Virus record (IMG/VR): IMGVR_UViG_3300046453_000063
Coordinates: 99,995 to 163,994 of that record
Reading direction: 5' to 3' (one strand)
DNA from: a virus
Length of the DNA stretch: 64,000 bases
A program made the translations under genes and the position numbers. The notes beneath the pieces are model-generated. The model saw nothing but the letters and a program-made list of their open reading frames with translations, did not search any database and was not told the origin of the DNA. This document shows, one piece after another, positions 27,931 to 63,429 of the stretch. Every line of letters begins with the position of its first letter. Position 1 is the first letter of the stretch.

Positions 27931-28192
27931 TTTTCTTATGTTAATCTCATGAAATACTTGTTTTATCAAGTTTTTTATGTATAAATATTCATGATAGTAT
28001 GTATAAGGGTGTATAGTGAATGAATAATATACATAAAAATGTATAAATATAATATGATTGATTTCATTGAGGGGAGAACGAAGATTCTCTCTTTTTTATT
28101 TAATAAATAAATATATGTTGACTTATCACTAACAAAGGTTTATTATTATAGATAAGAAGTTAATACATATTAATTACATGGAGGTTTTACAA

Positions 28193-29926
28193 ATGACAAA
28201 AACAATGACAGCAACTACAGCGGCAGCAATTAAGCAAGAATTGAAAGCAACTTTCCCGAATGTTAAATTTTCGGTTCGTAAGTCTGCTAGTGGTGGCTCA
28301 ATTAATGTCAGATGGGAGAACCTGCCAAGCGTTAACGCTGTAAATGCTATTGTTAAGAAGTATGAAAATGTTTCTTATGATCAACATTCCGGTGAAGTTT
28401 TGAGTGGTGGGAATACTTTTGTATTTGCAACAGCCGAATATACACAGGAGTTTAAAAAAGAAGTTGAAAACAGAATGACAGAGTATACTTTAAACAATCA
28501 TACTCATTATTATAGAGGATTTACTGAGGTCGTTAATCAAATGTGGGAAGAACAAACCAGTATGAATGAAGTTGCGGAGATTGAGAAAGTAGTTATAAGA
28601 GAAGAAAAAGAAGTTACGATGACTAATGAATTAGCCAAAGAATTAGTAAATAAATATGTTAAAAATGAAACAACAAAAAAAGAAGAAAATACTCTCACTC
28701 AATATCATTTGCAATTGCAAGAACGAGCAATGAATTTTAAAAAGTCTTTGCCTTCTAATTACTCTGAGTTAATCAATGATGAACTATCTTATGAAATATT
28801 GGTTAATTACTCTGAATCAAATAATGCGGCCGGAGAATATACCGAAACCGTTAGTGGTAAAGAACTAAAAGAATATATCTGGAGTAATCTTGTATTAGAT
28901 ATTGTATCTCCTTTGGTAGCCTCTGAGATCAGCCAGAATATTAATGCATCCGTAGATAATAGTGTATGCGAATCTGTCATAGTCGCTTATAACAACGAAT
29001 TGAACGGTATTGAATTATCATTTTCAGATACTTTGTCCGATGAAATGTTGTCCTCTGTATGTGCAAATGGCTTCAAGTGGAGCAGAAGAAAGAATCTGTT
29101 TTACGCAAAACAATCAGAAAAAACCATTGCGTTCGCAAACTCCCTAAGTGGTAATGACAGTATGCGAACAGCTAATGATACTACTTCTAAGCCTTCTGTA
29201 ATCAATTCTGAACCTGTTTCATATCCAACTATAAACATAGATGATCTTGAGTTATATATTGTTTCAGACGACTTACAACGCCGCTTACACTCATCTAGCA
29301 TGTTTGAGGTGGATTACAAGAAAGAATGTGTAAATGTATTTCAATCAATCCAATCAGAAGCAGTAAAAATAATCGAATCAACAAATGTTGAGTCAATTCA
29401 GTATCAAGTAAAGAAGTATCTGCAATCATTTAAAAAGCGTTATTACGAACAGTACATTAAATCACTTAACCATAAGGCAAATAATCCAGGATGGGCCGTT
29501 ACTGGTAGAGGTGGCTTAAATGTCCGTAGATATAACAAAATGCAGGACAGATATGGCAATATGATTTCTAATCTGTCTGAGATGTCAAAAGAATATGACC
29601 GTAAATTATCACAATTCAAATCAGTAATTAAGAAGCATGAACAAGACCTAAACAAACAAGCTGTAAGCGATTCTGTTAGCTCAAATACTGAACCTGTGCA
29701 ATTTATAACTGAAACAAAAGATATGATATATGTGGGCCGCTCACAGCGTCTTAGAACCTATAATGCTGGAGGATATACTATTGCAAAGTTGTGGGGTTGC
29801 TTCAGAGTGTTTGACGATAAAGGGAAAGAGATCGATGCCAATTTGAAAACAACCAGTAAATTAGACGATGCTAAAAATTATGTTATTTATCTTATCCGTT
29901 CACAGGCAGTTAATCAGGCTGTTTAA
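28193..29926 (+). CDS. Large polyvalent protein with N-terminal LPD29-like domain
   Basis: AAAIKQELKATFPNVKFSVRKS...SINVRW signature; GFKWSRRKNLFYAK module; strong motif promoter TTGACT-17-TATTAT. Confidence 0.75.
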   Translation: MTKTMTATTAAAIKQELKATFPNVKFSVRKSASGGSINVRWENLPSVNAVNAIVKKYENVSYDQHSGEVLSGGNTFVFATAEYTQEFKKEVENRMTEYTLNNHTHYYRGFTEVVNQMWEEQTSMNEVAEIEKVVIREEKEVTMTNELAKELVNKYVKNETTKKEENTLTQYHLQLQERAMNFKKSLPSNYSELINDELSYEILVNYSESNNAAGEYTETVSGKELKEYIWSNLVLDIVSPLVASEISQNINASVDNSVCESVIVAYNNELNGIELSFSDTLSDEMLSSVCANGFKWSRRKNLFYAKQSEKTIAFANSLSGNDSMRTANDTTSKPSVINSEPVSYPTINIDDLELYIVSDDLQRRLHSSSMFEVDYKKECVNVFQSIQSEAVKIIESTNVESIQYQVKKYLQSFKKRYYEQYIKSLNHKANNPGWAVTGRGGLNVRRYNKMQDRYGNMISNLSEMSKEYDRKLSQFKSVIKKHEQDLNKQAVSDSVSSNTEPVQFITETKDMIYVGRSQRLRTYNAGGYTIAKLWGCFRVFDDKGKEIDANLKTTSKLDDAKNYVIYLIRSQAVNQAV

Positions 29927-29945
29927 CATAAAGGAGGCTTTTCTC

Positions 29946-30110
29946 ATGATTCAAGCAATCAACAAAATTCTCCCTATTCCCAGTAAATCAAACTTTACCA
30001 AAACTATGCAACATGAATCTAAACTCAAAAAGAAAATCAAAAAACTAAACAAAACAGACGTTTATACGTCATTTGCAGATCAACTTGAAATGGCCTGTAA
30101 ATTCAACTAA
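29946..30110 (+). CDS. Hypothetical basic protein
   Basis: AAGGAGG RBS before ATG 29946. Confidence 0.55.
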   Translation: MIQAINKILPIPSKSNFTKTMQHESKLKKKIKKLNKTDVYTSFADQLEMACKFN

Positions 30111-30138
30111 ATAATAAATATACAGAGGTGACTATATA

Positions 30139-30294
30139 ATGAAAATGAAAACAATCAAGCTTGTGAAGCGTGATGGATCGGTTATCCTCAAATGTGAAGG
30201 TGATAACATGAAGGTGCTTGAACTTGCTACATGCTGCAAACACGATATTGTTTGTGATTATGGTGATGTTGTAGAGATTAAGGTTAGTGCATGA
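30139..30294 (+). CDS. Hypothetical 51-aa protein (not in track)
   Basis: GAGGTG RBS; MKMKTIKLVKRDGSVILKC... Confidence 0.5.
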   Translation: MKMKTIKLVKRDGSVILKCEGDNMKVLELATCCKHDIVCDYGDVVEIKVSA

Positions 30295-30396
30295 TCTGAT
30301 AAAACACTTATTTCAAATAAATAATAAGTAAATATATGTTGAATAATACATAAACGTATGTTATACTTTAGGTATCCCATAGAAGAGGTGATACAT

Positions 30397-30684
30397 ATGG
30401 ATAGAGCAATGGAGTTATCAGAAAGAATTAAGGCAAAAGCACAGGAGCGCAAGGAACGTGAAAAGTGCGCCAAGTATACAGATGTTAAACTTGAAGGAAC
30501 GAACGCACTTCAGGCCGGATTCACAAAAAGCGGGAAGAGAGTCGTTTTTGAGTCTTGTATGGGGTTTTCGTCACAGAGCATGTATGGAGCCGGAACTTTC
30601 AGTGTGTATGATGGGAACGAAAGAAAAGTCATCTTTACAAAAGGATACCCATCAAAAGCACTCGAATATATGATGAATAACTAA
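30397..30684 (+). CDS. Hypothetical early protein
   Basis: Motif promoter, GAGGTG RBS, terminator at 30683-30717. Confidence 0.65.
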   Translation: MDRAMELSERIKAKAQERKEREKCAKYTDVKLEGTNALQAGFTKSGKRVVFESCMGFSSQSMYGAGTFSVYDGNERKVIFTKGYPSKALEYMMNN

Positions 30685-31108: not shown

Positions 31109-31279
31109 ATGAAATATCTAACGCTCAAGAATATGGAAAAGGCAACCAAAATGATTGCAGATAAAGGATATGAGTGGAACAAGGCAAATCAAATTTCAAT
31201 TGATTGTTTCGAAAAATCAAAAAGAGCTGGAATGTCTGTTGAGTTTTTCATTTCTAAAATTGAAATAAAGACACTGTAA
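31109..31279 (+). CDS. Hypothetical 56-aa protein (not in track)
   Basis: Motif promoter TAGACA-17-TATGAT; GGAG RBS. Confidence 0.55.
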   Translation: MKYLTLKNMEKATKMIADKGYEWNKANQISIDCFEKSKRAGMSVEFFISKIEIKTL

Positions 31280-31325
31280 AATGATAATTTCATAAGAATA
31301 AAAATAAGATAATGGAGGAATTATA

Positions 31326-31538: not shown

Positions 31539-31645
31539 ACGAAGTTATAGGATTTGTAGACAAGTATGATAAAAACAAGATTTTACGCAAATTATTAATT
31601 ATGTTATTGTGAAAATAAAATAGTTAAAAAAGGAGATAGACATAC

Positions 31646-32503: not shown

Positions 32504-32841
32504 ACGAGTTATGATCACCTCAAGGATAAATAATTTAGGTATCCACTTCATAGGCCCCTGCCTCAATAGTATACTAAGTATTAAATGAAGTTGGCTGGAT
32601 AGGAGCGAGATTTTGTGATAAATAAAAGATGGTTTAAATGGTCTGTAGTAGTGAAAACGGAATCCTAAGATTCAATTGGTAGAACCTGATAAAACCCGTC
32701 TTTTACGTAAACTTTATAAGCACATATGCTTATATGATACGATACTTGATAAACAGGTATCGTTTTTTAATTTATATTGAAAAATATTTAAAAATAAAAA
32801 TATGTCAATGAAAAATATTTATTGCTTTTAATCAAAACCCA

Positions 32842-34794: not shown

Positions 34795-34927
34795 GTAATC
34801 AAATTTTGAATGAAATGTCAATTTCACATAGATTACTGTATTCAAAATGAAAATATAGGTATTGACTTTGAAACATGCGCGTGTTAAGATGTAAATATAA
34901 GGAACGAAATTAAAAGGAGTGGTTAAC

Positions 34928-35620: not shown

Positions 35621-36629
35621 AAAAGCTAATATCTAATGGAGTGCAAAGCAGCTTACAAAGTCAATTCAAAAAGGGAATATTAAATTTGATAATGCCGTTC
35701 AACGTGGTTATGTGTGGGACCAAGACAGAAAGTCTTTGCTTATTCACTCTCTCATTGAAGGATATCCTGTGCCAGCGTTCTACGCCGTCAAAGACGAGAA
35801 TAGCCAGTATAGTATGCTTGATGGAAAACAGAGATCAGAGGCTATCAGCGGCTTTCTAAACGGTGAATATGAACTAACCAATGTGCCTGAAATTAACATT
35901 GGTGATGAAGGCGAAACACTCAACATCAACGGCCTGAAATTCGCCGATTTACCGGAAGATGCGAGAGATGAAATTGAAAGTTATTCATTAACTGTTTATT
36001 ACTTTGACAGCCAAATTACCGATGATGAAATTAATGAATTATTTTTCAGACTCAATAACGGCAAGCCATTGACAAGTATTGAGCTTGGTCGAGTTAAAGC
36101 AAAATCAATTGAAACAATCCAGGAAATCGGTAAACACGATCTATTCAAAACAACGTTAACAGAAAAGGCCATTAACAAATATACGAATGAAGAAATTGTT
36201 ATTAAGTCGTGGGCAATGCTGAACGTTGAACAGCCCTCATTTGAAACTAAATCAATTCGACCTCTGATTGAAACGGCAGATATTACACCAGAGCAAACAG
36301 AGAAAATTAAAGTTGCCTATGATCGAATTCTGGAGACTTACAATTCAATCAAGCAAATTAATGATAAAGAACATAATAAAATTGCAAAACGAATCATCAC
36401 ACGGACACACTTAATTGCATTGGTTCCTGTTGCCGTTAAATCAGCTAGTGATGGAGTTGAGATTTCCGATTTTACAAAATGGGCAACATCATTTTTTAGC
36501 GGAAAGAAATCTGCAAGCGTGAGCGAAGTATATAATAGCGCAATTGGTTCTGGATCTGCTAAACCGGAAAGTATCAAGAAAAGAAATGATTCGATTATGG
36601 AAAGTTACAATGAACAATTCTCAAACTAA
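35613..36629 (+). pseudogene. DUF262 (ParB-like/GmrSD N-terminal) gene interrupted by in-frame TAA at codon 8
   Basis: GGAGG RBS, ATG 35613, MIKKANI-stop(35634-35636)-WSAKQL...QRGYVW; downstream DGKQR and FFRLNNG motifs. Confidence 0.75.
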
Positions 36630-36822
36630 CCACACATGCACTTACTGCAATAAGCCCGTTACACAAGCAGCATACAATTATTGTCTGTCTAATGGGCTTC
36701 CTGTGGCTTGCTACAAGTGTCAATATATTAAAGGAATAAGTATATATAGTATACACCAGAGAATGCGACAGAGGGTCAATGAGGGGGTTGTGACGATGAA
36801 CTTAGGTAGCGAGGAGGAATAA
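36610..36822 (+). CDS. Small zinc-finger protein sharing its domain with the 26001 ORF
   Basis: CTYCNKPVTQAAYNYCLSNGLPVACYKCQ. Confidence 0.6.
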   Translation: MNNSQTNHTCTYCNKPVTQAAYNYCLSNGLPVACYKCQYIKGISIYSIHQRMRQRVNEGVVTMNLGSEEE

Positions 36823-37051
36823 GAATGAATATGCTAAGGGGAAGAGTTAAGGATTTTTGGTCTAATAATTGGACGCTAGTTGCTGCTATTGTGATTTGGG
36901 GATTCTGGATTGTGAAGGTTGTTGGGTAGTTGAATAAATGATTTAAAGAATAAATATAAGTTGTTAAATATATTTGAGTATGATATGATTACATCAAGAA
37001 ATACATAGAGTTAATGCTGATCAAACAACACGATTTCATGGGGAATAGGAG

Positions 37052-37285
37052 ATGGTTAAAATGTCATTTACGGATCGTTTGGAATTAGCCTGTGAATTAC
37101 AGCGTAGAGGTTTTTATCCGTACAGTATTCTTAAGACACCTAGAAAATTTGAAGAGTTTTATTTAAAAAGTAACAGTGTAGATTATGTTGAATTTGAGTG
37201 GATCGACAACAACAGAAATGATACCTCAATTGGAATCAAAATTGGGCAGAATGAGCACGGAGAAGGGATATATTGTATTCAATAA
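37052..37285 (+). CDS. Hypothetical protein
   Basis: Downstream of motif promoter; stop lies inside a boundary palindrome. Confidence 0.55.
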   Translation: MVKMSFTDRLELACELQRRGFYPYSILKTPRKFEEFYLKSNSVDYVEFEWIDNNRNDTSIGIKIGQNEHGEGIYCIQ

Positions 37286-37315
37286 AAACAGTATTTCATA
37301 AGGAGGATACCAAAG

Positions 37316-37546
37316 ATGAAAGAGCATACAGGTAGGGTAGTGAAATTCACTAGTAACCATGGTAATGAGTTTCGAACAGGTGATTTGGCAGTATGTATGG
37401 ATGGCGAATCAAAACTTTTTCTGGGGTTAAGCGGGATTAATATGATGCGTATGTGGTACGAATCCGGTTCATATGAAGTATTGCCAACAATTAAATCAGA
37501 TATCGAAGAATTGTTGTCGGTAGTACGCTGCAAGTATTTTCAGTAA
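37316..37546 (+). CDS. Hypothetical protein
   Basis: AAGGAGG RBS; boundary palindromes on both sides. Confidence 0.6.
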   Translation: MKEHTGRVVKFTSNHGNEFRTGDLAVCMDGESKLFLGLSGINMMRMWYESGSYEVLPTIKSDIEELLSVVRCKYFQ

Positions 37547-38715
37547 AAGCAGGATTTGATCAAAACTTTAGGGGATGAGTTATAGGTGGAACTGTATATC
37601 AATCAAACAGTACTAGTGCTGCCCAACAATAAATTTGGGAGAGTGAAAATGCTTGATGTCAAAACGTTACTTGTGAGATTTCACGATAAGTCAGTGAGTG
37701 AATATAGTTTTGACGAAATATCACCGTGTATGTTCTGATGAAACAGTTATATTATTAAAAAGTAAATATATCTATCAAAAGGTCTTAAAAGGGTGTAAAA
37801 GGTCTAATAAGGTTATCATAGGCCATATAAGGGGTGATATCATATGCAAACAGCAATCCGTTGCCGTGATGATCAAGGAAATATTATCATGAGTGTACGT
37901 GAAGAAAAAATCAAAACTCTACCCGATGTAATAGCAGATATTGAAAAAGCTATAATCATTGTTGGCGTAGTATTCATAGTTGTTGTAACTGCCGTAGCAG
38001 TATTGTTATAAATAAAAATACAAATACATATCACAATCACGAGAATACACATCTAGAATATAACTGGTGTGTATTTTTCTTTGTGATAATTACAAATTAA
38101 AAGGAGTTGTAACCCTCTATATGCCATCATATGACCATTATCTAGTTGAAGCTGAACATTCATCTCATCCATTTGAAACTGGCCTTATATCGTCTTTTAG
38201 TGTGGCTAACAAGGTATATAAACGCTGGCAGAGTGATCCATGGGTTAGCAATGTCAGATTAATGAAATGCACTAACCAGGGAAGAGTACATATAGAAATT
38301 TAATGAATAAATATATTGACTTAAATATAAAATCATGATAAGATTATTACAGATAAGAAACACATACATACATGAGGTGAAACGGATTAATGTATCAAGT
38401 AAAAATCATTGAAAAGATTTGTGGTAAGTTAGCAGTTAGCGTTCATGTTTTTAATGATGAAGCAGAAATGAAACAGTTTGTGAAATTACGCAGAAAAGAA
38501 CGTGCGTTAGTGTTTGTACAAAATAATGAGAAATGTCTTAGGAGGTAAATATAATGAATGAAGTTAGATTGTTTATGTGGCTGAAACAGCAGCACCAAAA
38601 CAATGATAAGTTAACACTGAATGAACGTGTTATGATTAAGAAGAGAATGGTGAGTATTGCTGAGAAGCATGTTAAGTTTTGATAAATTTATGTGTTTATG
38701 GGGAGTTGATCTTAA

Positions 38716-38955
38716 ATGAGTATAAGTGCAATTGAAATTAACAGACAATCATTGCTTGAAATCCTTGAGAAAATGAGAAAAGACGAGCTGATCCCAAACA
38801 CATATCAATACGCTGGCGCAGAGATTATTAACTTCAATGATACTCCTCAGATCCGATTGAACTTTGAAGAATGGTCTTACCCATTTGTTGCTGGAAGAGA
38901 AACATCAAGAATGCTGCCAGAACAGTTTTATGATGAAGTACTAGAGCAGTTATAA
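38716..38955 (+). CDS. Hypothetical protein
   Basis: GGGAG RBS; boundary palindromes on both sides. Confidence 0.6.
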   Translation: MSISAIEINRQSLLEILEKMRKDELIPNTYQYAGAEIINFNDTPQIRLNFEEWSYPFVAGRETSRMLPEQFYDEVLEQL

Positions 38956-39214
38956 TTAAACTATATTTTCATAAGGAGATGAAAGTTACAATGACAAGAA
39001 CCTTAAAAGTTAAGGTAGAAAATATTAGTTCTTTGGCTAAGGAAAAATTAATTATTATCCTGTTGATCTTATATCATTCTGGCAGACGTTTACTAAAGGT
39101 AAAGATGATGACATTGTAGATATTGAATTTTCAAGTGTGATCGAATTTGACAAAGCAAAAGAAATTCTTAATTTGCAGTAAAATAAGTCTATTATCAAGA
39201 AATGGAGGTTAATT

Positions 39215-39418
39215 ATGAGTAAAGAACTAATCTGTCATGCTCCTCGTGAGCCGTATTTTACTGTTAGTAATATTTATATAGCGAGAGAAGAAACTGACGA
39301 AGATGGAACCCCTCTATTTATCATTAAAGACAATAAAGGTGATGAATATGCTTTTGCAGCAGTAGATGGTTGCGGAGAGTCAAGTTATGGCTTTAATTTT
39401 TACTTGTTGGAAGATTGA
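39215..39418 (+). CDS. Hypothetical acidic protein
   Basis: GGAGG RBS; boundary palindromes at 39178 and 39419. Confidence 0.6.
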   Translation: MSKELICHAPREPYFTVSNIYIAREETDEDGTPLFIIKDNKGDEYAFAAVDGCGESSYGFNFYLLED

Positions 39419-39665
39419 ATGAAAGAGAAATTTTACTGAAAATTAAAATTAAATGGGAGGTTAAATGATGAAAGAATGTAGGCCATTACCACAAAATACT
39501 TTCATGGTTGAGACGGAAAGAGGAATCATTTTTGTTGACGCAAAATCACACAGAGAAGCAGAAAGCAAAGGGAAAAGTATGGGATATAAAAGTGTAGCCG
39601 CTTATGAAACTATTGAAGTTCATTGTGATTAAGTTTTAAAAATAAATATATAAGGGATGATACAT

Positions 39666-39839
39666 ATGAAAACATGGGATTTTATTGTTAACAATCAAGT
39701 TGTCGAAACCATTGACCAACAACAAAATAAGGAATCATTCTATTGGATTGTATTGGACAAAGTATATTCGCTCACACAGCGTTATGGAGCTTCTGTGGCT
39801 GTCTATAACCGCTCAGGAAAGGAGTACAGTTATGTATAA
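39666..39839 (+). CDS. Hypothetical protein
   Basis: AAGGGA RBS plus GATACATATG start context. Confidence 0.5.
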   Translation: MKTWDFIVNNQVVETIDQQQNKESFYWIVLDKVYSLTQRYGASVAVYNRSGKEYSYV

Positions 39840-40246
39840 GAATGGACGAGTTAAGGGCGGAAAATGCGTTGTGGTGACTGTGGAAGGGGTAGAAATTGGA
39901 TTACTTGATGCTGCAAATAAATATAGTGAAAATCATAAATAGTTGATGTGGCGGACATAAATATGTGTTCGCCATTTCCTTTTAATAAGTAAATATATGT
40001 TGAACAATAATTAAGTGTGTGGTAAAATAAAGGAGTCAAGAAGGATATTATACATATGAAGGAGAATGGTAAATTGAATGGTGATAATGCTAAAATGAGA
40101 TCAATCATTGCTGTACAAATTCGCGATCTGGAAGCACTGAAGGATTCTGTGATTTCTAAGTCATCGCCACAACGGTTAATGATGGTTGAGGCTGAGATTA
40201 AGGGATTGCATGTTAGGATGGCGAAGTATGCTTAAGTAAAATATTT

Positions 40247-40483
40247 ATGAAAAATGATCAATTAAAGTGTATGGCATACACATATAGTGCATCGAGGACG
40301 GAGGATGAAGCCATGAAGTGGATTTTGGTTAGGAGTTTACCATACACACATGAGTTTGAACTAGATGATGATGAAAGAGTGGAACTTAAATTATCGTGTC
40401 GTGAATCAGAGATTATGTATAAGTTGCGCGTAACTTTTGGACGTGATGTGGAAGCGGATCTGAGTATGTTAAAACCAGAATGA
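40247..40483 (+). CDS. Hypothetical protein
   Basis: ORF track; internal GGAGG suggests a later start. Confidence 0.45.
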   Translation: MKNDQLKCMAYTYSASRTEDEAMKWILVRSLPYTHEFELDDDERVELKLSCRESEIMYKLRVTFGRDVEADLSMLKPE

Positions 40484-40534
40484 AACCACAAAGTTTGTAG
40501 ATTATATTTATAAAAGGTTGATTTCATCAAGATA

Positions 40535-40780
40535 TTGGATTTAAAAAAGTCAATGAATACGGGGGTTTTTGAGATGGATAAATTTGAATATACTCATCTT
40601 ATTCAAGAGAGATTTGAAAGAGGATCGATTTGGTCGATTGTATCTGAAAATAAAAAAGAACGTTTGGATTTTCTTGACGATGTTAAAACATTAACGGTAT
40701 TAAATGCTATTGGTGAATTAGGATGGGAAGTTGTAGCTTTAGAAAGTAAAGTGTATTTACTGAAGAGAAAGATTTCTTAA
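40535..40780 (+). CDS. Hypothetical protein (DUF4177-like motif)
   Basis: FEY...LNAIGELGWEVV...YLLKR pattern. Confidence 0.55.
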   Translation: MDLKKSMNTGVFEMDKFEYTHLIQERFERGSIWSIVSENKKERLDFLDDVKTLTVLNAIGELGWEVVALESKVYLLKRKIS

Positions 40781-40812
40781 AGAAATAACTATTTCAAAAG
40801 GAGAGTGTCTGT

Positions 40813-41037: not shown

Positions 41038-41111
41038 TTAAATAAGTCTGTTTAAAAGGAATGTTTTATCGGATTACACATTAGACACATATAGCGAAGG
41101 AGAAAAGTAAA

Positions 41112-41527: not shown

Positions 41528-41734
41528 ATGGGGCTTAAAACAGTAGCAGAACTCATTAAAGAGGTAGAACACATGGAATACATGATTAGGGCAGGAAGAG
41601 AATCGGTCTACTTTGCAGTGCTTAATGATAATTTTGATAAGGCCAAAACGACAGCACTCCAGGTCAAAGAAAAAGAAAGGGAATTGAAAGTATTTATGGA
41701 TCAATTAGTGAGAACAAAGGAAGAAGACAAGTGA
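41528..41734 (+). CDS. Hypothetical protein
   Basis: GGAGG RBS. Confidence 0.55.
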   Translation: MGLKTVAELIKEVEHMEYMIRAGRESVYFAVLNDNFDKAKTTALQVKEKERELKVFMDQLVRTKEEDK

Positions 41735-41771
41735 TGAAAGGCATCTTTTATCAAAACATAAAAATAGGAGA

Positions 41772-41987: not shown

Positions 41988-42072
41988 ATGTAGATTTAAT
42001 TCAATTTTGTAACCCATAATACAATATTGTATAGTAAAATAAAATACTATCCGATAAAAATGGAGGTATTTT

Positions 42073-42372: not shown

Positions 42373-42410
42373 ATCTGCATAAAATACGAATTTTATCTAA
42401 AATTGTGATG

Positions 42411-43213: not shown

Positions 43214-43220
43214 TAAATAT

Positions 43221-43466: not shown

Positions 43467-43494
43467 GATGTATCCCCCTGAGAATAATTGAGTA

Positions 43495-46015: not shown

Positions 46016-47347
46016 TTGAAAAAAGACAGAGATCAGCTTGAAACATTAATTGCGGACACAATTGCAGAAGTTAAAGTTGATCGGAAAAAAGTGTTGAAAG
46101 TTAATAATTTCCTCTCTGAATCAGGAGTATCATTAGGAACATTTGATGAGATATCAAAGGGAGATAAACAATTATCAACACTTGAATCATCAATGTTATG
46201 TGTTTTATCCGACGCTCTGTATGAATTAACTGGCAATGGTAATCTTAAACCTGACCAATGGTTTACCACTAAAGAAATAAACTATGCAAAAAAAGAATTA
46301 ATGAACAATACAGAAACCAATAGAATAATGTTACCCATAGCATTAGAAAATGTTGAAATGGTAAATATTGATAACTATATTACAAAAATTAAAATGTCTG
46401 ATTTAGTTCAGTGGTTTCACTCCCAACTTATTATTTATGACTTTGATACTCAAAGAAGCGCAAAATTTAAAACTGGTAAGAATGGGGTTGTACCAGTTCC
46501 AGACATCAATCTAAAAAGTGTTAAAGACATTGCAGAAAACATGCTAAACGGTACATACCTGGAAGATATGATTACGCTAAACATCTACTCTGATGAAGCT
46601 GAAGCGGTTGATTACAACTCTAAGTCACGACTATTGACAATCAACGAGCAGGCAGCCATATCAATACTTGATGGCTTTCACCGTCTTCAGGGCGGTGTGA
46701 GAGCTTGCGCTATCAATCCAGAATTAGAGCAGATGATGATACTATCAATACGGTCTTACGATACAGATACGGCAAAGAAATACTTTGGACAAATCAATAC
46801 AATCAATGTTGTTAAAAAGGAACGGCTTAAAGAATTGAAATCACAAGAGTTCTCTGATCTGGTCGTTAAAGATCTTCAGCAAAAAACAGACCTTAAAGGC
46901 AAAATTGCTTCTGCATCAAGAATCAGTGAATTGGCTGGACAATTGACCACCTTTGACATCCTATCCTATGCTATTGATAATGTCTATAAACCCAAAAGCA
47001 GACTCGATGCAATGGAAATGTCTGAAACACTCACTAAGTTTTTTAATTATCTAGCAGGAAGTTATGTTGATGAGTTTATTACAAATCCTAACAAATATAG
47101 GGATGAGAACATTAATCATTCTCTTATGTTCGTGGGATATGTTGTAATTGCTAAACACTTTGAAGACAACCAAATTCCGTATAAAGAAATAAAGAGTTTC
47201 ATCGAAAGCAAAATAAATTTTCAAGATAAGAAGTTAATCGAGCTTTTGAATAATAAGCGTGGAATCAATAACACAAAAGTAAGAAACGATGTAATTAAAT
47301 ACTTTGAGCGGCTGATAGGAATAGGAGTGGATCAAGATGTCCAATAA
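46016..47347 (+). CDS. YopQ/SroE-like DndB/ParB-superfamily (DGQHR-type) protein
   Basis: QR motif (DTQR), ILDGFHR, FGQINT; directly upstream of the yopR-like gene as in SPbeta. Confidence 0.78.
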   Translation: MKKDRDQLETLIADTIAEVKVDRKKVLKVNNFLSESGVSLGTFDEISKGDKQLSTLESSMLCVLSDALYELTGNGNLKPDQWFTTKEINYAKKELMNNTETNRIMLPIALENVEMVNIDNYITKIKMSDLVQWFHSQLIIYDFDTQRSAKFKTGKNGVVPVPDINLKSVKDIAENMLNGTYLEDMITLNIYSDEAEAVDYNSKSRLLTINEQAAISILDGFHRLQGGVRACAINPELEQMMILSIRSYDTDTAKKYFGQINTINVVKKERLKELKSQEFSDLVVKDLQQKTDLKGKIASASRISELAGQLTTFDILSYAIDNVYKPKSRLDAMEMSETLTKFFNYLAGSYVDEFITNPNKYRDENINHSLMFVGYVVIAKHFEDNQIPYKEIKSFIESKINFQDKKLIELLNNKRGINNTKVRNDVIKYFERLIGIGVDQDVQ

Positions 47348-48332
47348 AATATATGAAGATGGATTTTTTAATGAATCTCACAAAGAAATGTATCTTAAAG
47401 ATCTAAGTGAAAAAACTTACACGTCCTATGCCAGAGTTTTAAAAAGAGCACGATATGTAGAAGAACAATTAGGTAAAGACCTATATAACTTTAATGTGTC
47501 TGAGATAGAACAACTACTTAAATTTATGGCTCCTGGGTCTTATTCGGTAAGCAGCGGCAACATCAATGTAATTAGATATTATATTCGATGGGCGATACAA
47601 CAAGACTTAAGAGTTGATAATATTAATCCATTAGATTCAGTAATTAGCGATGAGTTTATAAACAAGTTTATTGACACAACAAACAAGAAATTGTTTACCG
47701 AAGAAGAAATAAACAATATTATTGGTGGATTACAAAGTTTTCAAGATGCTGCAATTATACAATGTTTATTTGAAGGGATAATGGGGCATGAGTATTCGGA
47801 AATTTTAAACATACTTAAAGATGATATAGATAGAGACAGCACTAAATTAGAGGTGAGAAATTCTCCATCATCTGGACCAATGGAGAGAAGAGTGGCAGAA
47901 GTGAGTCCAAAACTAATGAATTTATTATATAGCGCAGCAAATGAGAAAGAGTACCTGAAGTTTAATGGGATGAGCAATTCCAAAGCTCAGAGAATTGAAT
48001 TAATCGAAAATGAGTATGTATTTAGATCGGTTAAGCTCAGAGTTGTTAATTATGAAAGAGCCAGTAATCATTTGGTTCTAAGAAGAATAAAGAGCATTAG
48101 GGAATGGTATGGATACCCACATCTAACAGCAACGGGTATAAAAAACTCTGGTATGCTTAAGATGGCTAGAGATCTTTATGTGGTAAATAAGACTTTAACC
48201 CGAGATGATATAGTTAAGATTTGTAGGCGTTTTGGGGCCAATGAAATTGCTACAACAAGACTAACGAAAGACTTTTTAAATGTAGATACAATCAGGTCGC
48301 TTTATCCAGAAATAGATGAAGAACAAGCCTAA
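47337..48332 (+). CDS. YopR/MrpR/SroF-like master repressor (catalytically degenerate tyrosine-recombinase fold)
   Basis: EEQLGKDLYNFN..EI, YIRWA, LFEGIMG..YSEI (no catalytic Arg), IKNSGM (no HxxR). Confidence 0.82.
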   Translation: MSNKIYEDGFFNESHKEMYLKDLSEKTYTSYARVLKRARYVEEQLGKDLYNFNVSEIEQLLKFMAPGSYSVSSGNINVIRYYIRWAIQQDLRVDNINPLDSVISDEFINKFIDTTNKKLFTEEEINNIIGGLQSFQDAAIIQCLFEGIMGHEYSEILNILKDDIDRDSTKLEVRNSPSSGPMERRVAEVSPKLMNLLYSAANEKEYLKFNGMSNSKAQRIELIENEYVFRSVKLRVVNYERASNHLVLRRIKSIREWYGYPHLTATGIKNSGMLKMARDLYVVNKTLTRDDIVKICRRFGANEIATTRLTKDFLNVDTIRSLYPEIDEEQA

Positions 48333-51392: not shown

Positions 51393-51717
51393 ATCCTTCG
51401 AAATAATAATTTTATCAAGAATGTGGAGGACAGAAAGTGAATGATGTTCTGGTAATCCTACTTGCATTAATAATTGTCTACTTCACAGTTAAGTACGAAA
51501 GAACTGATGGGGGTCGCAGGGTATTCTATAATTCATTAATTGGATTAACAGTAGTTCTTGCACTCTATATCGCTTCATTAATAATTTAAAACGCCATGCG
51601 AAAGCATGTTGAATATATAGCTTTACGTAAGTGAGGTTATAGATATTCTAATACTGAAAGGTGGTGAACCCGACAAACTCAGCTTTTGAACGATACATAT
51701 AAAAGTGGGTAAGAATA

Positions 51718-54855: not shown

Positions 54856-54953
54856 GGGACCTGATAAAAGACAGATATCATCAAGATTAAGAGAATAAAA
54901 ATACAATAGCCTCACTGTAATGGTGGGGCTATATCTAAAATGTGGAGGTTCTG

Positions 54954-55999: not shown

Positions 56000-56163
56000 A
56001 AAAGGAAGTGATATTATGTTCCCGATTAATTTAGAAATCTATGTTGCAAGTGGAGATTATACATATAGTGACCTGTTGGAACTTAGAGATAAGACAAAAG
56101 ACATTCTTGATCATGTAGAACGGTTGTTAGATGAAGAATAAAAGCTCATGAAACTGTTAATTC

Positions 56164-56373
56164 ATGAAGAAATTAAGGGAGGGTGAAATAGTGAAGCGAG
56201 ATATTAAGGCGAAAATTTATTTTAAATCAGGACTCACAAGAGAATTGTGTGTGGGAAGTTACGAAACATTTCGAGAAGCAATGAACATTATACTTACGGC
56301 GAGATTTAATGTTGGGAATGACTATGCGTTTGATAGAGATTCAATTGAGTTTATGGAAGAAGTTAAACAATGA
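56164..56373 (+). CDS. Hypothetical protein
   Basis: GGGAGGG RBS points to GTG start at 56191. Confidence 0.5.
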   Translation: MKKLREGEIVKRDIKAKIYFKSGLTRELCVGSYETFREAMNIILTARFNVGNDYAFDRDSIEFMEEVKQ

Positions 56374-56994: not shown

Positions 56995-57158
56995 ATTCTT
57001 GATAAATTCCGCAGTTTATCAAAAGAGGTGAATCATGAACATTGATAAGGATTTCGGTTTTGGCAATGAAGTATGTTCCAAATGCGGAGAAGAAATCTAC
57101 AACTCGGAAACATTGAGTAGATGTTTGAGATGCGGGAAATCGACTCCAAGAGAAATGA

Positions 57159-58426: not shown

Positions 58427-58471
58427 AAGCTGACGAAATCATCATTTCATAAAGAAAAAGGAGAGTGTTAG

Positions 58472-58957
58472 ATGAAAATATTGAACAAGATTAGATGGTT
58501 TTGTGAAGATAAATGGTGGAATATTCAGCATTATTTCGAAGTAATGAGATGTAAAAGATTGTATTCAGATTATGAAGACAATGAATATAATATCGGTTCG
58601 CTTAAACATATATGGGGAGTAACATCCTGGGATAATCTAAGCGGTAGTGATTCGAATTTGCATACGATGAATGATATTGAAATTACATACGACAGAAAAA
58701 GTAAACTATATGGACTTAATATCGAAACACATTACATGTTCAATAAACAAAACGGAGAAAGCGTATATCTTACGGATCTTCTGAGCGCATTTACAACTTT
58801 TATGGATGCAAATGGATATTCAAAAGAATATCGATTCCCTTTATTCTGTGGAACCCCTACCATTACAGCGTCTGCGGAGTCAATTGAAGAACTGTATACT
58901 AACTTTAAACTCTTTGTATCGGGATATTGTGCGGTTTATGAAGATAGCATAAAATAA
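58472..58957 (+). CDS. Hypothetical protein
   Basis: AAGGAG RBS; boundary palindromes at 58433 and 58949. Confidence 0.65.
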   Translation: MKILNKIRWFCEDKWWNIQHYFEVMRCKRLYSDYEDNEYNIGSLKHIWGVTSWDNLSGSDSNLHTMNDIEITYDRKSKLYGLNIETHYMFNKQNGESVYLTDLLSAFTTFMDANGYSKEYRFPLFCGTPTITASAESIEELYTNFKLFVSGYCAVYEDSIK

Positions 58958-59277
58958 AACTTTTATCAAGAAAGGGGAATATCTGCTCTGATTAAAAATA
59001 GTGATTATATAAAATGTGACAACGGAAAGAGCTATCACATCATCGACAATTGGGACGACAAGAATCATCGCTGGAACAATAAATATAATTACAGACTGGT
59101 CGAAAATGGTGAAGCGGTAAACGAGGTTAGTAGCTTGCATATTAACGACTGTTTTAAGTTTGGAGAATCAATTTGTGTTGGCGAACTATATAATAGAAGC
59201 CCAGAATTCGCAAAAATACTAGAAGTATATGATTTATTAGGTAGACTAAAACATACATATGAAAGTAGGAAATAATA

Positions 59278-59955: not shown

Positions 59956-60639
59956 TTGAGTAATAGTCCAAGAGCAATTGAGGATTTTAAAGGTATCTGC
60001 TTTAAGTGCCTGAAAAAGAAAATCACGGCAATATACTCTCTATATAGAAGCAATTACGGAAGTAGTTTTGATAACAATTATACATATATGCAAATCTGCG
60101 ATGAGTGTAAGCCTAAAGATATTAAAAAATGGTTTGATGAAGAGCCTGAATTGATTGACGGATGGTGCGAAGATTATAAATATGAAGATTGTATTATTGA
60201 ATTTGTTGATACATTTTCAGTCGAGGGGCAGGAATTATTCTGGAATAGATGTGCTTACGGAGCTTGTTCCCATACCATGGAGAGCCAAGATTGGATCGAG
60301 AAGAAATTGGGAACTCTTCCAGACGAAATATATGAACAATATGGGATGTATTCACCTAAGACTATTAGATTATACAGGGAAAGATTCCCAACATGTAATC
60401 ATCCTATAAATATAATATATAGTGATAAATCAAAAGGGTGCTGGTGCGTGTTCGATGCTAGCGGAGAATATGATCAAAAGGCAGAAGAATATAATATTTC
60501 TGGTGAATGTGCAAGTTGTCAGCATTTTGTTGAACGGAATGAACCATTAAAGAACATGACAAGTAAAGAGTTTGAACTGTACAAAAAGTACTTCATAGGA
60601 AAGATGAAATACCTTGAATTAAGAGATAAGTTTGAATGA
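59956..60639 (+). CDS. Cys-rich hypothetical protein
   Basis: Multiple CxxC motifs; AAGGGG RBS. Confidence 0.65.
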   Translation: MSNSPRAIEDFKGICFKCLKKKITAIYSLYRSNYGSSFDNNYTYMQICDECKPKDIKKWFDEEPELIDGWCEDYKYEDCIIEFVDTFSVEGQELFWNRCAYGACSHTMESQDWIEKKLGTLPDEIYEQYGMYSPKTIRLYRERFPTCNHPINIIYSDKSKGCWCVFDASGEYDQKAEEYNISGECASCQHFVERNEPLKNMTSKEFELYKKYFIGKMKYLELRDKFE

Positions 60640-60684
60640 AAGGAGAATTTGATCAAGAAATGAGGTGCGGATATCGTTCATTAT

Positions 60685-61760: not shown

Positions 61761-61782
61761 TTGTATATTGTATTTTAATAAA

Positions 61783-61804
61783 AAAGACCTCATTGAGAGG
61801 TCTT
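61783..61804. terminator. Terminator between convergent genes
   Basis: AAGACCTC-ATTGA-GAGGTCTT. Confidence 0.65.
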
Positions 61805-61814
61805 AGGTTATCGA

Positions 61815-62177
61815 TTATAGGGCATTTACGAAGTCTTCAAGTTCCTGGAGAGAAGGAGCGACCTTGTAAAAGAATATCCCATTGCCATCTGCCATCTGTA
61901 CTTCTTTCCATGGAGCACTTTCATACATCATTGCAATTGCCAATGGATCACCTTCCTTACGAAATCTTACTCTGTCAGGCTGGGTGATACATAGATAAGA
62001 CTTACCACTTTCGTGAGCTAGAGTCATAAATAGTGAATATTTCCCTTGTGTGCCAAGTATGGCAAGATTGGCAGGATAGAATACAGTGTTGCCGCATGGA
62101 GTTGGCAGAGAGATCATATCTCTGACTTGCTGACTTGGAGGAAGATTACCTTGATTCACAATAATACCCTCTTTCAT
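61815..62177 (-). CDS. Hypothetical protein, antisense moron
   Basis: 120-aa ORF against the prevailing strand, ending at a terminator. Confidence 0.65.
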   Translation of the reverse strand: MKEGIIVNQGNLPPSQQVRDMISLPTPCGNTVFYPANLAILGTQGKYSLFMTLAHESGKSYLCITQPDRVRFRKEGDPLAIAMMYESAPWKEVQMADGNGIFFYKVAPSLQELEDFVNAL

Positions 62178-62270
62178 TTTTTGGTAAATAGAGTATATAT
62201 GGAAATGAGAGTAAAGTAAATATATTTAATTTTAAACAAAATCTAAACTTAATAAGAATGGGAGACAATA

Positions 62271-63338
62271 ATGTATAACGAACCTGATTACTATGACTAT
62301 GAGCACGAACCATCAGAAATTGAAAATGTGTTTACATCTATAGTTGATGCTGAAGTAAACAAACGCACATCAAAGTATTTTGAAAAAATGAAACAACTTG
62401 AAGAACAACATGAAAAAGATGTGCTTCGAGTGCTGGAATTGGCAAACGAAAGAGATGAGTTGAAAAAGACTCATAAACAAGGCGAAGCATTTAGTGTATT
62501 TAAGTCACAGATTAATGATAAAAATATTGAGAATGTGTGTTCATTCCTGAATCTTGAAAAAATCAACATTGATTTTAGCGGAATGCATAGCGATCAAATT
62601 CCAGCGTGGTTCAGATTGGTTGCCAAGCACTATCCAGATCGTGATAAAGTTTTCTCTCTCCTGGATTTGTTTGAGATCAATTATCCCGATTGGGCTAAAA
62701 CATTCAAGATGCCGTTTGATTATGGTGAAGAAGAGCTTGATTTAATCTTTTCAAAGATCGGAAGGATGTACGTTTGCAATAGTTGTATCTTCAGCGACAA
62801 TATGGGATTCTTTTATACTTACTATTCAAGACATAAGAATCTTAATACATTGTTTGAAAGAGAATCTTCTGTTGAAATTCCATGGAACCTGTTTCTACAA
62901 AACAAACTTTTGGCAACAGAAAAGTATTTTGCAAGAATCATTGAATCGTTAAAACGAAAAGAAAGTCGTTCTGATTATTTTTATAAGATTCAAGATTATC
63001 AAGAGTTGTCTCCAGAACAAGCAGAAAGAATGTTTGATTTTCTGCCAATGAATAATTTATATGATATTCATAAAAGATTCATTGAGCTTAACAATGATAT
63101 TGTTAAAAAGAAACCAGAATTAGCGATTATATATAAAGACAAAATGAGTGACAATCAATACTCAAGCTTTTATTATTTGAACTTCCCTATTGAGATGCAA
63201 AAAGACTTTATCAGAAATTACAGAGGGATGGGGAGATATGAGTCTAAATTTGATCTTGTAAAAAAGATGAATATCTCAAAGAAAGAAAAATTAGCATTTC
63301 TACAAGAGATTAATGAACAAATGTTGCGAGAAAAATAA
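62271..63338 (+). CDS. Hypothetical protein
   Basis: 355 aa; GGGAG RBS. Confidence 0.75.
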   Translation: MYNEPDYYDYEHEPSEIENVFTSIVDAEVNKRTSKYFEKMKQLEEQHEKDVLRVLELANERDELKKTHKQGEAFSVFKSQINDKNIENVCSFLNLEKINIDFSGMHSDQIPAWFRLVAKHYPDRDKVFSLLDLFEINYPDWAKTFKMPFDYGEEELDLIFSKIGRMYVCNSCIFSDNMGFFYTYYSRHKNLNTLFERESSVEIPWNLFLQNKLLATEKYFARIIESLKRKESRSDYFYKIQDYQELSPEQAERMFDFLPMNNLYDIHKRFIELNNDIVKKKPELAIIYKDKMSDNQYSSFYYLNFPIEMQKDFIRNYRGMGRYESKFDLVKKMNISKKEKLAFLQEINEQMLREK

Positions 63339-63429
63339 ACTTCATAAAAGATAGGTTTTATCAAGTTTTTCGGGTGTTCTTAAGTAAGAAAACAAGAGTA
63401 TTCAAGAGTAAAATAGAGAATAAGGGAGA

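Follow-up and report, generated by a model that had tools for sequence, protein, structure and literature searches.

In T4-type phages, the elements called PeSL, as Arbiol, Comeau and Krisch described them in 2010, are reportedly short, conserved and intergenic, and border small accessory ORFs in hyperplastic regions. Each is said to combine an early promoter with a stem-loop; PeSLs are also said to lie at module boundaries and to act as crossover points for modular shuffling, the exchange reportedly proceeding by ordinary homologous recombination. In cluster A mycobacteriophages, the immunity repressor (gp71 in phage L5) binds asymmetric 13-bp sites called stoperators, whose specificity varies from one immunity group to another. 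In the SPbeta phage family, the repressor MrpR is a recombinase-fold protein that only binds DNA (PMC10516654).

The dyad element treated here was studied in a 163,994-bp viral genome of that family (IMG/VR record IMGVR_UViG_3300046453_000063) and its relatives. The window is the stretch of 64,000 nucleotides at positions 99,995 to 163,994 of the record, and coordinates refer to it unless stated otherwise.

Sequence, number and placement of the dyads

A preliminary description of the window had given 27 positions for the palindrome RTRAAA-N6-TTTYAT, and all 27 carry the pattern or a copy with one or two mismatches, those at 38955, 57984 and 10804 being weak copies below the matrix threshold. 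It had also named a lack of enrichment over AT-rich background as the result that would speak against the motif. In the whole genome, RTRAAA-N6-TTTYAY occurs 37 times at a spacing of 6 and 0-3 times at any other spacing from 0 to 20, and the same scan with everted or direct arms is flat, without a peak; the spacing-6 peak and these flat controls together answer the objection. In the window, 20 strand hits match RTRAAA-N6-TTTYAT exactly, versus 0.9 expected from dinucleotide shuffles, and none of 100 shuffles reaches 20. Scanning with a position matrix located 59 dyad sites genome-wide, 26 of them in the window; trained on the window, the matrix found 33 more in the remaining 100 kb, where order-3 Markov simulations gave 0.4, and it gained two cores (38682 and 54864) over the earlier list. 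The dyad motif is confirmed as real, and it is larger than first reported.

The full site is a polar, imperfect palindrome of 34 bp, wTTTCYTs-ATRAAA-N6-TTTYAT-sARGAAAw. Its polar CAAG tail, reported earlier, is borne out by the base counts at positions 19-23 over the 59 sites (C31, A48, A47, G37/A22, A54) and belongs to an outer symmetry, in which it is stronger than the left-hand half, wTTTCYTs/AAATCTn. This weak symmetry of the outer flanks gives arms of 14 bp about the fixed 6-bp spacer (14-6-14); the long arms and fixed spacer of a tyrosine-recombinase core site, a geometry recognized at the outset, are present. Inside one genome, spacers differ from site to site, but dyads at matching positions in different genomes have conserved spacers. 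The earlier argument that variable spacers speak against homology-dependent exchange has to be revised.

It was found that called genes exclude 52 of the 59 sites. The core starts a median of 5.5 nt after a stop codon (IQR 0-14.5) and ends a median of 22.5 nt before the next start codon (IQR 18-37), 5-12 nt 5' of Shine-Dalgarno sequences, in agreement with the initial remark that the sites overlap or follow a stop and precede the next ribosome-binding site. Both orientations occur, and 35 of the 59 dyads are co-directional with both neighbouring genes. That dyads delimit single genes is true of 12 of the 58 inter-dyad intervals, which hold exactly one called gene, while the others hold 2-32. 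Nor is the array limited to 27949-63361, as had been thought; it is one block of about 88 kb of small plus-strand genes, which runs across the 127-bp terminal repeat and reaches genome positions 1-51 kb.

In the window, a weak core lies in the late minus-strand block (6326..6343, minus strand, matrix score 16.3). The core ATGAAA-tacttg-TTTTAT, followed by CAAG, is at 27949..27966 (plus strand, score 28.4), and further plus-strand cores stand at 30299..30316 (score 22.4), 31276..31293, where the left arm forms the upstream TAA stop, 31569..31586, 32689..32706, which a terminator-like hairpin follows at 32739-32763, and 34810..34827. The plus-strand cores at 37282..37299 (spacer ACAGTA) and 37543..37560 bracket a single gene of 76 aa, and those at 39178..39195 and 39419..39436 a single gene of 67 aa; between the two pairs lie 37738..37755 (plus) and one of the added cores, 38682..38699 (minus, score 24.0). 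The ACAGTA spacer recurs in distant relatives at a roughly syntenic location. Beyond a core at 40510..40527 (plus), two are on the minus strand, namely 40780..40797, with degenerate arms (score 19.8), and 41052..41069 (score 22.1); the plus-strand cores at 41734..41751 and 42379..42396 follow, the latter preceded by a stop codon and followed by a terminator hairpin (42411-42439). Between 42379 and 51398, where MazF, YopQ-like, MrpR-like and agr-like genes lie, the matrix scan found zero dyads, so their reported absence from the yopQ-yopR-agr block stands. The series resumes on the plus strand at 51398..51415, 54864..54881 (3' of a YorG-like gene, score 27.2; the other added core) and 56148..56165, turns to the minus strand at 57002..57019, and continues on the plus strand at 58433..58450, 58949..58966, whose spacer contains the stop codon of the upstream gene, 60636..60653, whose left arm forms a TGA stop, and 63344..63361.

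The dyad is also found in SPbeta, phi3T, Goe11, IMG/VR relatives and prophages of other Bacillota; the motif is phage-specific and family-wide. SPbeta has 36 copies at spacing 6 versus 0-5 at other spacings, and relatives have 26-69 N6 copies versus 5-8 N7 copies. In Terribacillus (3.4 Mb), the prophage holds 11 of the 12 strict matches, and in Paenibacillus a prophage region holds 9 of 19, the remainder equalling the control count; from host chromosomes the dyad is essentially absent. A Lachnospiraceae genome bears six dyads in 21 kb, and YomM-like and YopP-like proteins were not found in it with the queries used.

Mosaic breakpoints at the dyads

In comparisons among SPbeta, phi3T and Goe11, HSPs begin at -8 to -1 and stop at +14 to +18, counted from the dyad core. 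Whether gene gain and loss break at the sites had been raised as a check, and the outcome was positive in two clades. Breakpoints fall at 30 of 52 dyad junctions versus 74 of 237 other junctions (OR 3.0), making dyad junctions about three times likelier to be breakpoints, with p-values that are overstated because the same events are counted repeatedly across three genomes. In the SPbeta clade, 54 same-spacer dyad pairs were found (chance about 1), both 120-bp flanks being unrelated in 13; in the IMG/VR clade there were 72 (chance 0.4), with both flanks unrelated in 19. The two clades together give 126 same-spacer colinear pairs versus about 1.4 by chance, and among the first genome pairs listed, the paired dyads are collinear in both genomes. 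Around the dyad with spacer agactg, the upstream and downstream flanks are U1/D2 in SPbeta, U1/D1 in Goe11 and U2/D1 in phi3T, which are three of the four combinations. On these sequence comparisons, homology is seen to break at dyad edges, and spacers to be conserved between unrelated flanks.

About 70% of the mosaic breakpoint junctions are without a dyad, and in 49 variable segments dyads stand at both ends in 4 and at neither end in 27. At least one indel, that of yoqH, joins dyads of unlike spacers. The integron-like cassette array first proposed is contradicted, because the dyad stays at its colinear position while neighbouring genes change and does not move with the gene.

Junctions from laboratory crosses of phi3Ts and SPbeta were tabulated by Dragos et al. 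(bioRxiv 10.1101/2020.05.06.055103, Suppl. Table 1). At junction 7, the whole homology is 30 bp and consists of a shared dyad, ATAAAATGCATATTTTAA (SPbeta 69423, phi3Ts 62422); it is the one junction of 16 at a 30-bp island, the other homologous ones spanning at least 400 bp (bioRxiv 10.1101/2020.05.06.055103). The sole junction termed 'non-homologous' maps, with a coordinate calibration accurate to about 10 bp, no more than 14 bp from an identical dyad between unrelated flanks (SPbeta 116414, phi3Ts 107396). Recombination took place at an 18-bp island. Taken as a whole, the interpretation in the preliminary description is partly supported.

Binding proteins and alternative readings

The dyad can be told apart from promoters, from terminators and from SPBRE. 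No sigma-A hexamers stand at a fixed register to the dyads, and promoters bear a separate box, ATTTAATAAATAAATATAT, 5' of TTGACw or an extended -10. The dyad was rejected as a promoter on these grounds and because some copies (42379, 32689) lie between a stop and a terminator, a position that by itself excludes a promoter at 42379. It is most improbable that dyads serve as promoters for a phage-specific transcription machinery, be it the sigma factor, YonO or a host RNA polymerase that the phage has appropriated. Their polarity and their location at gene starts would suit such a role, as would the sigma factor and YonO-type RNA polymerase encoded in the genome, but tblastn of the sigma-factor ORF finds no match in SPbeta, which has dyads. 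YonO, moreover, initiates from one late promoter, upstream of yonK (PMC5467207), where there is no dyad, and a variable 6-bp centre with a 12-bp hexamer pitch fits no sigma-70-type promoter. SPBRE, derived from SPbeta as tAGACAAATACAAAwAATATGTATATAAT, lies within about 10 promoters and differs in sequence, and the dyad was rejected as this known master-repressor operator. The suggestion that the YopR-like protein binds the dyads is contradicted for SPbeta, where ChAP-seq of MrpR gave 10 peaks, every one at SPBRE (PMC10516654). An RNA element on a polycistronic early mRNA, either a hairpin or a translational-regulator site 5' of the ribosome-binding site, is hardly to be expected. The fixed distance to the Shine-Dalgarno sequence, a polarity that follows transcription and good folding of two of eight window sites tested agree with it; however, the other six fold no better than shuffles, some dyads precede a terminator and not a gene, and either orientation is found. 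Arm positions 3 and 16 vary independently (G/C 8, G/T 17, A/C 12, A/T 17; Fisher p=0.58), with an A/C mismatch in 12 of 59 sites, and an Rfam search of the dyads matched no family. The arms are under no base-pairing constraint.

Since there is no covariation, most sites do not fold as RNA and the sequence is unlike SPBRE and the promoter box, we infer that the dyad is bound by a dimeric, phage-encoded DNA-binding protein. The 14-6-14 geometry suggests one of the additional proteins with a tyrosine-recombinase fold in this family, and the genome encodes two Pfam tyrosine recombinases beside a serine integrase homologue. The first candidate is the YomM-like protein, whose gene lies outside the window; it is better conserved than the YopP-like one (56-64% identity within the family) and retains R, H, H and Y, but in both phages it has HxxK where the second catalytic arginine would stand. 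The YopP-like recombinase, the one placed at 14593 and suspected in the preliminary description, is the second (14521..15660, plus strand; Pfam Phage_integrase and a SAM-like domain); R, HxxR, H and Y are present, and it is 29% identical to SPbeta YopP. The YopQ/SroE-like protein (46016..47347, plus strand; Pfam DndB; 30% identity to SPbeta YopQ) is a further candidate, and the HU-family, YonN-like protein (10833..11105, minus strand; Pfam Bac_DNA_binding, E 4e-31) a weaker one. The MrpR/SroF-like master repressor is encoded at 47337..48332 (plus strand; Pfam MrpR_N_CB and MrpR_C_cat); the target of its SPbeta homologue is SPBRE and not the dyad (PMC10516654).

The reading that we tentatively put first, giving it slightly less than an even chance, is that dyads are double-stranded DNA sites for a conserved dimeric phage protein and module-boundary landmarks that channel exchange to cognate dyads. 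The phage-encoded dimer would occupy the dyad on double-stranded DNA, each dyad being a fixed, position-specific landmark at a gene-module boundary, whose arms are common to all sites and whose 6-bp spacer is unique per genome and shared by relatives at the matching place. Where related phages come together, be it in a co-infected cell or in a lysogen that is infected, exchange would be directed to cognate dyads; the genes to the left or right of a dyad could then be replaced, and gene order and adjacent reading frames would be kept intact. The binder may catalyse strand exchange or may merely make the dyad a preferred crossover point, and a Sak4-like annealing protein of the phage could exploit 18-30 bp of identity without a site-specific enzyme.

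Possible, but rather unlikely, is a purely regulatory or architectural role as dispersed operators, at which SroE/YopQ, for example, would block or insulate read-through between modules. Dyad recombination would then be a by-product, the dyads being the sole short identities between unrelated modules, and the array might be likened to the L5 stoperators or the KorB OB sites. The large number of sites between genes, most of them pointing in the direction of transcription, and the dyad-free lysogeny block are consistent with operators; SroE, the second repressor of the family, has no known target (bioRxiv 10.1101/2025.11.27.690993) and a homologue in the window, MrpR is a precedent for recombinase folds as regulators (PMC10516654), and most mosaic breakpoints need no dyad. 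On the other hand, dyads are not at promoters, and some flank terminators, where a roadblock would be redundant. The dyad is near-identical in very distant phages, while operator specificities in the family diverge: SPBRE is unlike the promoter box of this phage, and SroF motifs are phage-specific (bioRxiv 10.1101/2025.11.27.690993). The use of a 30-bp island in one laboratory junction of 16, beside homologies of at least 400 bp, also counts against operators. Another DNA transaction, such as a specific nick or cut or a polar barrier to forks, resection or branch migration, with recombination tracts beginning or ending at one dyad edge, seems improbable. The dyad is polar, insertions adjoin its left edge with their opposite end inside coding sequence, and SPbeta-clade pairs with one flank kept retain only the right one in 18 cases and only the left in 6. 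This asymmetry is gone in the second (IMG/VR) clade (12 versus 13), however, and no candidate nuclease or terminator protein was identified.

Comparison with known systems

The dyads resemble PeSLs in being short, intergenic and located at module boundaries flanking small accessory ORFs, but have no promoter, stable stem-loop or arm covariation, and show a recombinase-type geometry with a position-specific spacer. As with stoperators, tens of copies per genome occupy short gaps between genes, follow the direction of transcription and possibly act away from promoters; the dyad, however, is symmetric, 34 bp long and conserved family-wide, and the known master repressor binds a different site. 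Integron attC/attI sites are likewise imperfect palindromes that end promoterless, co-oriented small genes, with a tyrosine recombinase encoded nearby, but an attC site accompanies its gene and is recombined in the form of a folded single strand, whereas the dyad arms have no pairing constraint. SPBRE is a dispersed repeat of the same phage family bound by a recombinase-fold protein (PMC10516654); it is phage-specific and lies in promoters, in contrast to the dyad, a different sequence with 36 copies in SPbeta that are not at promoters. Membership among dif/pdif sites fails: the ATAA/TTAT blocks of the host dif that was found (ACTTCCkATAA-TATATA-TTATGTwAACT) are 6 bp apart versus 10 bp in the dyad, and dyads are phage-specific, show no alternation of orientation and, as a rule, border a variable segment at only one of its ends. 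The dyad nevertheless shares with the XerC/XerD sites two arms about a fixed 6-bp centre and a half-site resembling GATAA/TTATC, and pdif sites, too, border exchangeable gene modules.

The source phage and its dyads

The source phage is a large SPbeta-like siphovirus, whose 163,994-bp record (the window being positions 99995-163994) carries 127-bp direct repeats at the genome termini. The preliminary description had listed about 25 palindromes in the window, and these proved to be real, the exact pattern being about 20-fold above shuffles. Across the genome, 37 copies have their arms six nucleotides apart (N6) vs 0-3 copies at each other spacing from 0 to 20, and everted and direct arm arrangements showed no spacing peak. 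A matrix trained on the window found 33 more sites in the other 100 kb, compared with 0.4 in order-3 Markov simulations. There are 59 dyads in total; the 26 in the window and the 29 at genome 1-51 kb lie in one block of about 88 kb of small plus-strand genes, joined over the terminal repeat, and the minus-strand structural block holds only a handful.

The dyad core is ATRAAA-N6-TTTYAT, in which positions 7 (not A) and 12 (not T) are semi-conserved. The right flank is a strong C-A-A-R-A-w-w-T, mirrored less strongly on the left by AAATCTn, for which the best copies have ATTTCCTC; because of this mirroring, the dyad was defined as a polar imperfect palindrome of 34 bp, each arm being 14 bp long. 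Dyads lie a median of 5.5 nt past a stop codon and 22.5 nt ahead of the next start, 52 of the 59 are outside called genes, 35 are co-directional with both neighbours, and most are of one polarity. Among junctions with a gap of 35-60 nt, 20 of 59 contain a dyad.

SPbeta has 36 dyads at N6 vs 0-5 at other spacings, phi3T and Goe11 have the same dyad with the same spacing, and the IMG/VR relatives have 26-69 at N6 vs 5-8 at N7. The element is also present in prophages of Paenibacillus, Bacillus pseudomycoides, Terribacillus, Metabacillus and one Lachnospiraceae genome. In Terribacillus, 11 of the 12 strict matches in 3.4 Mb are inside the prophage, and in Paenibacillus the matches outside the prophage equal the control count. 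The dyad is a phage feature and not a host feature; real and family-wide, it is undescribed in the searchable SPbeta reviews and papers (most subscription journals lie outside this search), though it occurs in a model phage. The SPBc2 record labels a few copies merely as stem_loop (e.g. 116406-116431). Lineages differ in the arm variant they favour, with GTAAAA...TTTTAC in one relative and ATAAAA...TTTTAW in SPbeta, which would fit a phage-encoded binder that co-evolves slowly with its site.

Gene content was assigned by tblastn against SPbeta and by Pfam. The window encodes an HU-like, YonN-like protein (10833-11105, minus strand; Pfam), a YonO-type RNA polymerase (11339-13873, minus strand) with 52% identity to SPbeta YonO, a YopP-like tyrosine recombinase (14521-15660; tblastn/Pfam), a YopQ/SroE-like protein of the Pfam DndB family (46016-47347) and an MrpR/SroF-like repressor (47337-48332; tblastn/Pfam). 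A RecD2-like helicase and YorF-like and YorG-like proteins are encoded in the genome (tblastn/Pfam). Outside the window lie a YomM-like tyrosine-recombinase homologue (genome 86433-87515, minus strand), a serine-integrase homologue and a sigma factor (genome 45949-46623, plus strand; Pfam Sigma70_r2, E 4e-11), the ORF of which had no SPbeta match by tblastn. The nearest prophage found is in a Paenibacillus genome, with 85% amino acid identity in the YorG-like protein and about 75% nucleotide identity over one gene only, too little for mapping breakpoints; megablast of window 36000-44000 gave no GenBank phage match.

Three further features of the gene map were observed. Window 10667-10764 (minus strand) matches the Rfam skipping-rope RNA at 65 bits (E 2e-13); this RNA has the HU-like gene on one side and the beginning of the late structural operon on the other, and it neighbours the gene for the YonO-type RNA polymerase. 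SPbeta is reported to have an unannotated non-coding RNA at the start site used by YonO. A MazF/PemK-like toxin gene (window 42809-43213, plus strand) is directly upstream of the YopQ/MrpR-like lysogeny block; SPbeta YopM works via the host MazE/MazF system. The YorL-type DNA polymerase III alpha homologue, outside the window, consists of two plus-strand ORFs about 1 kb apart (genome 53365-54846 and 55856-58444) with 57% and 51% identity to consecutive parts of SPbeta YorL, an arrangement that suggests an intron, intein or homing-endonuclease insertion in between.

Dyads at mosaic boundaries

Gene gain and loss was compared with dyad position in the SPbeta clade (SPbeta, phi3T, Goe11) and in an IMG/VR clade of relatives (L011-L016, about 50% protein identity), and the expected coincidence of breakpoints with dyads was seen in both. 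Relative to the dyad core, the homology blocks given by megablast have their starts within -8 to -1 and their ends within +14 to +18. Breakpoints were found at 30 of the 52 junctions with a dyad vs 74 of the 237 others, an odds ratio of 3.0, or 2.5 when limited to gaps of at least 25 nt, the events in both counts not being independent. A dyad is missing from 70% of all breakpoint junctions, and just 4 of the 49 variable segments are bounded by dyads on both sides.

The strongest result on mosaicism is that colinear dyads have the same spacer even where the flanking sequence differs. There are 54 same-spacer dyad pairs in the SPbeta clade vs about one by chance, with homologous flanks on both sides in 17, on the left only in 6, on the right only in 18 and on neither side in 13. 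For the IMG/VR clade, the figures are 72 pairs vs 0.4 by chance, distributed as 28, 12, 13 and 19 in the same order. Spacers differ within a genome and are kept between genomes; since a spacer stays at its colinear site despite the change of flanks, it is address-like and not cassette-borne. The dyad with spacer agactg occurs in three of the four flank combinations among three phages, and hence it was concluded that exchange took place at this 18-bp island. An arm-identity analysis for placing crossovers inside the dyad had a mixed outcome. Between distant relatives and this genome, 8 same-spacer matches (about 4 of them independent) were found vs 1.2 expected, without flank homology and in numbers too small for interpretation. 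The spacer ACAGTA (window 37282-37299) recurs in two relatives of only about 50% protein identity, at L013:18517 and L014:17294, about 7-8.5 kb downstream of the same reference gene and with unrelated flanks; this single case may reflect deep conservation of one address.

Laboratory recombinants are also available, as an evolution experiment yielded 16 junctions between phi3Ts and SPbeta (Dragos et al., Suppl. Table 1; bioRxiv 10.1101/2020.05.06.055103). Fifteen of these were reported to lie in homology, 14 of them in stretches of 400 bp-19.8 kb and junction 7 in 30 bp (bioRxiv 10.1101/2020.05.06.055103). The junction coordinates were converted via two block edges, with an accuracy of about 10 bp, and the sequences of both parents were read. 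The homology of junction 7 consists of the dyad ATAAAATGCATATTTTAA and a few bases next to it, common to otherwise unrelated sequence. The single 'non-homologous' junction (SPbeta ~116405-116414, phi3Ts 107382) is at most 14 bp, with mapping good to about 10 bp, from an identical dyad, ATAAAATATTCCTTTTAT, common to unrelated flanks. The two phages share roughly 20 dyads, amounting to about 0.5 kb of identity, vs about 75 kb of homology of the ordinary kind; for dyads to hold one or two of the 16 junctions is therefore more than their share, in an experiment that had another aim.

Nature of the element and candidate binding proteins

The two arms vary independently at positions 3 and 16 (G/C 8, G/T 17, A/C 12, A/T 17; p=0.58), RNA folding was no better than that of shuffles for six of eight window dyads, and the dyad matched no Rfam family. 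It was therefore concluded that the constraint is on half-sites of duplex DNA and not on a hairpin, and we infer from the sequence that the two half-sites would be read by a dimeric protein.

Several known signals were compared with the dyad and rejected. The operator of the master repressor MrpR/SroF, SPBRE, was derived here from ten published MrpR target promoters as tAGACAAATACAAAwAATATGTATATAAT; it is promoter-embedded, and neither its sequence nor its position is like that of the dyad. MrpR ChAP-seq gave ten peaks, all at SPBRE (PMC10516654), and SroF was reported to bind as a monomer to an asymmetric, phage-specific 24-nt motif (bioRxiv 10.1101/2025.11.27.690993). YonO has a single late start in SPbeta, upstream of yonK (PMC5467207), and no dyad is at that position; hence, the dyad is not the YonO promoter. 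A sigma-A promoter within the dyad was discarded, as acceptable hexamers occur in no register and some dyads, such as those at window 42379 and 32689, sit between a stop codon and a terminator hairpin. Dyads are not intrinsic terminators, which have a G+C-rich stem and then a U run, their arms being A/T only; separate terminator hairpins adjoin some of them. An IHF-like reading of the right half (TATCAA) was dropped because SPbeta copies are without CAA.

The promoters of this phage have a different repeated box, ATTTAATAAATAAATATAT, immediately upstream of TTGACw -35 hexamers or TG-extended -10 elements. It was seen at window 20288, 22342, 22976, 28106, 34005, 38306 and 51015 and about 30 more times genome-wide, and is likely an early-promoter/operator box, the functional analogue of SPBRE for the MrpR-like repressor. 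Of this box, the form AATAAATATA has 66 occurrences in the genome. An A5-CC(n)GCATAAACATTGG-T5 element, which occurs in both orientations, stops 22-23 nt short of some dyads, with a conserved linker (..ATTTCCTC). Its copies outside the window are at genome 13665, 23191, 28935, 48234, 68906 (minus strand) and 86086, and window 42411-42439 holds the hairpin form related to it. Equally far from other dyads there is a genuine bidirectional terminator, AAAAACCCTTGATAAATAAGGGTTTTTT. The A5-CC(n)GCATAAACATTGG-T5 element itself may be a terminator that has decayed, or else an accessory site.

With its 14-6-14 geometry, the dyad would suit a putative binder of tyrosine-recombinase fold. The best-conserved candidate is the YomM-like protein, with 56-64% identity across the phage family; yomM is in the late-gene cluster of SPbeta, and of the R-K-H-R-H/W-Y set of tyrosine recombinases the residues R, H, H and Y are kept, with HxxK for HxxR in both phages. 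The searchable literature, which excludes most subscription journals, held nothing on yomM. In the YopP-like protein, which has only 29% identity to SPbeta YopP, R, HxxR, H and Y are all present. SroE/YopQ has been described as a 'second repressor' without known target (bioRxiv 10.1101/2025.11.27.690993), and the HU-like YonN is a weaker candidate. The YomM-like gene is bracketed by dyads at genome 86123 and 87733; a dyad is about 400 bp downstream of yomM in SPbeta and adjoins the 3' end of the yomM-like gene in Terribacillus.

Proposed role and comparison with known systems

The dyads are fixed, addressed junction landmarks. That they are putative sites of a recombinase-fold protein channelling module exchange, with or without catalysis, is proposed tentatively, at a probability a little short of even. 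In its most specific form, which we consider doubtful, SPbeta-like phages would have a natural 'heterospecific-site cassette exchange' system, with a late-expressed YomM-like putative recombinase acting on cognate dyads. This protein would recombine the cognate dyads of two co-resident phage genomes, and the 6-bp spacer would serve as a position address, so that exchange would take place only between sites at the same genomic position. Each genome would then have some 25-70 landmarks at which mosaicism is programmed and preserves order. It is debated whether the exchange points of phage mosaics are random and filtered by selection or guided by sequence; the present case is a defined element of 34 bp, found also in the tractable model phage SPbeta, at which a considerable fraction of module boundaries lie. 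With the dyad in SPbeta, its spacer kept between unrelated genes and a 30-bp laboratory junction, this question is directly testable. The proposal also offers a possible function for the unexplained extra tyrosine-recombinase homologues of SPbeta-like phages; SroE, the 'second repressor', might have its target in the dyads. Should the exchange prove to be catalysed, it would represent a site-specific system of a new type, which might also serve as a tool for exchanging cassettes at multiple sites in a set order.

Alternatively, the dyads could form a regulatory or architectural operator array, used for recombination only opportunistically, which we judge rather unlikely. Like a stoperator array, they are many, intergenic and oriented with transcription. 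Stoperators are asymmetric sites of the immunity repressor, with a specificity that varies with the immunity group, whereas the dyad is symmetric and has the same consensus across distant phages; the MrpR operator lies at early promoters and differs from it in both sequence and position. A nick or barrier site, an RNA element and a promoter together share the probability left by these two readings; the weak folding and independent arms speak against the second and the absence of usable hexamers against the third.

The preliminary description had proposed an integron- or pdif-like cassette array; membership of either class did not hold up, and the part that survives, in modified form, is that of recombinase-type sites tied to gene exchange. 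Integron sites travel with their cassette, whereas dyads remain colinear between genomes while neighbouring genes differ; attC sites act as a folded single strand with paired R and L boxes, unlike the dyads with their non-covarying arms. Both integrase candidates, YopP-like and YomM-like, matched only the generic Phage_integrase family. Host dif sites, recovered in two host genomes, share a GATAA/TTATC-like half-site with the dyad, but their ATAA/TTAT blocks are 6 bp apart in 11-6-11 arms and those of the dyad 10 bp apart; because of this difference in pitch, dyads are not dif or pdif sites. In addition, pdif modules have sites of alternating orientation, whereas dyads are mostly of one polarity and seldom bound a segment at both ends. 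PeSL-type elements include a promoter and a stem-loop, neither of which is in the dyad, and have in common with it a crossover role at mosaic boundaries. In geometry, the dyad with its strict N6 and symmetric flanks agrees with a generic tyrosine-recombinase core, where a spacer of set length (6-8 bp) separates two arms of about 11-14 bp in inverted orientation.
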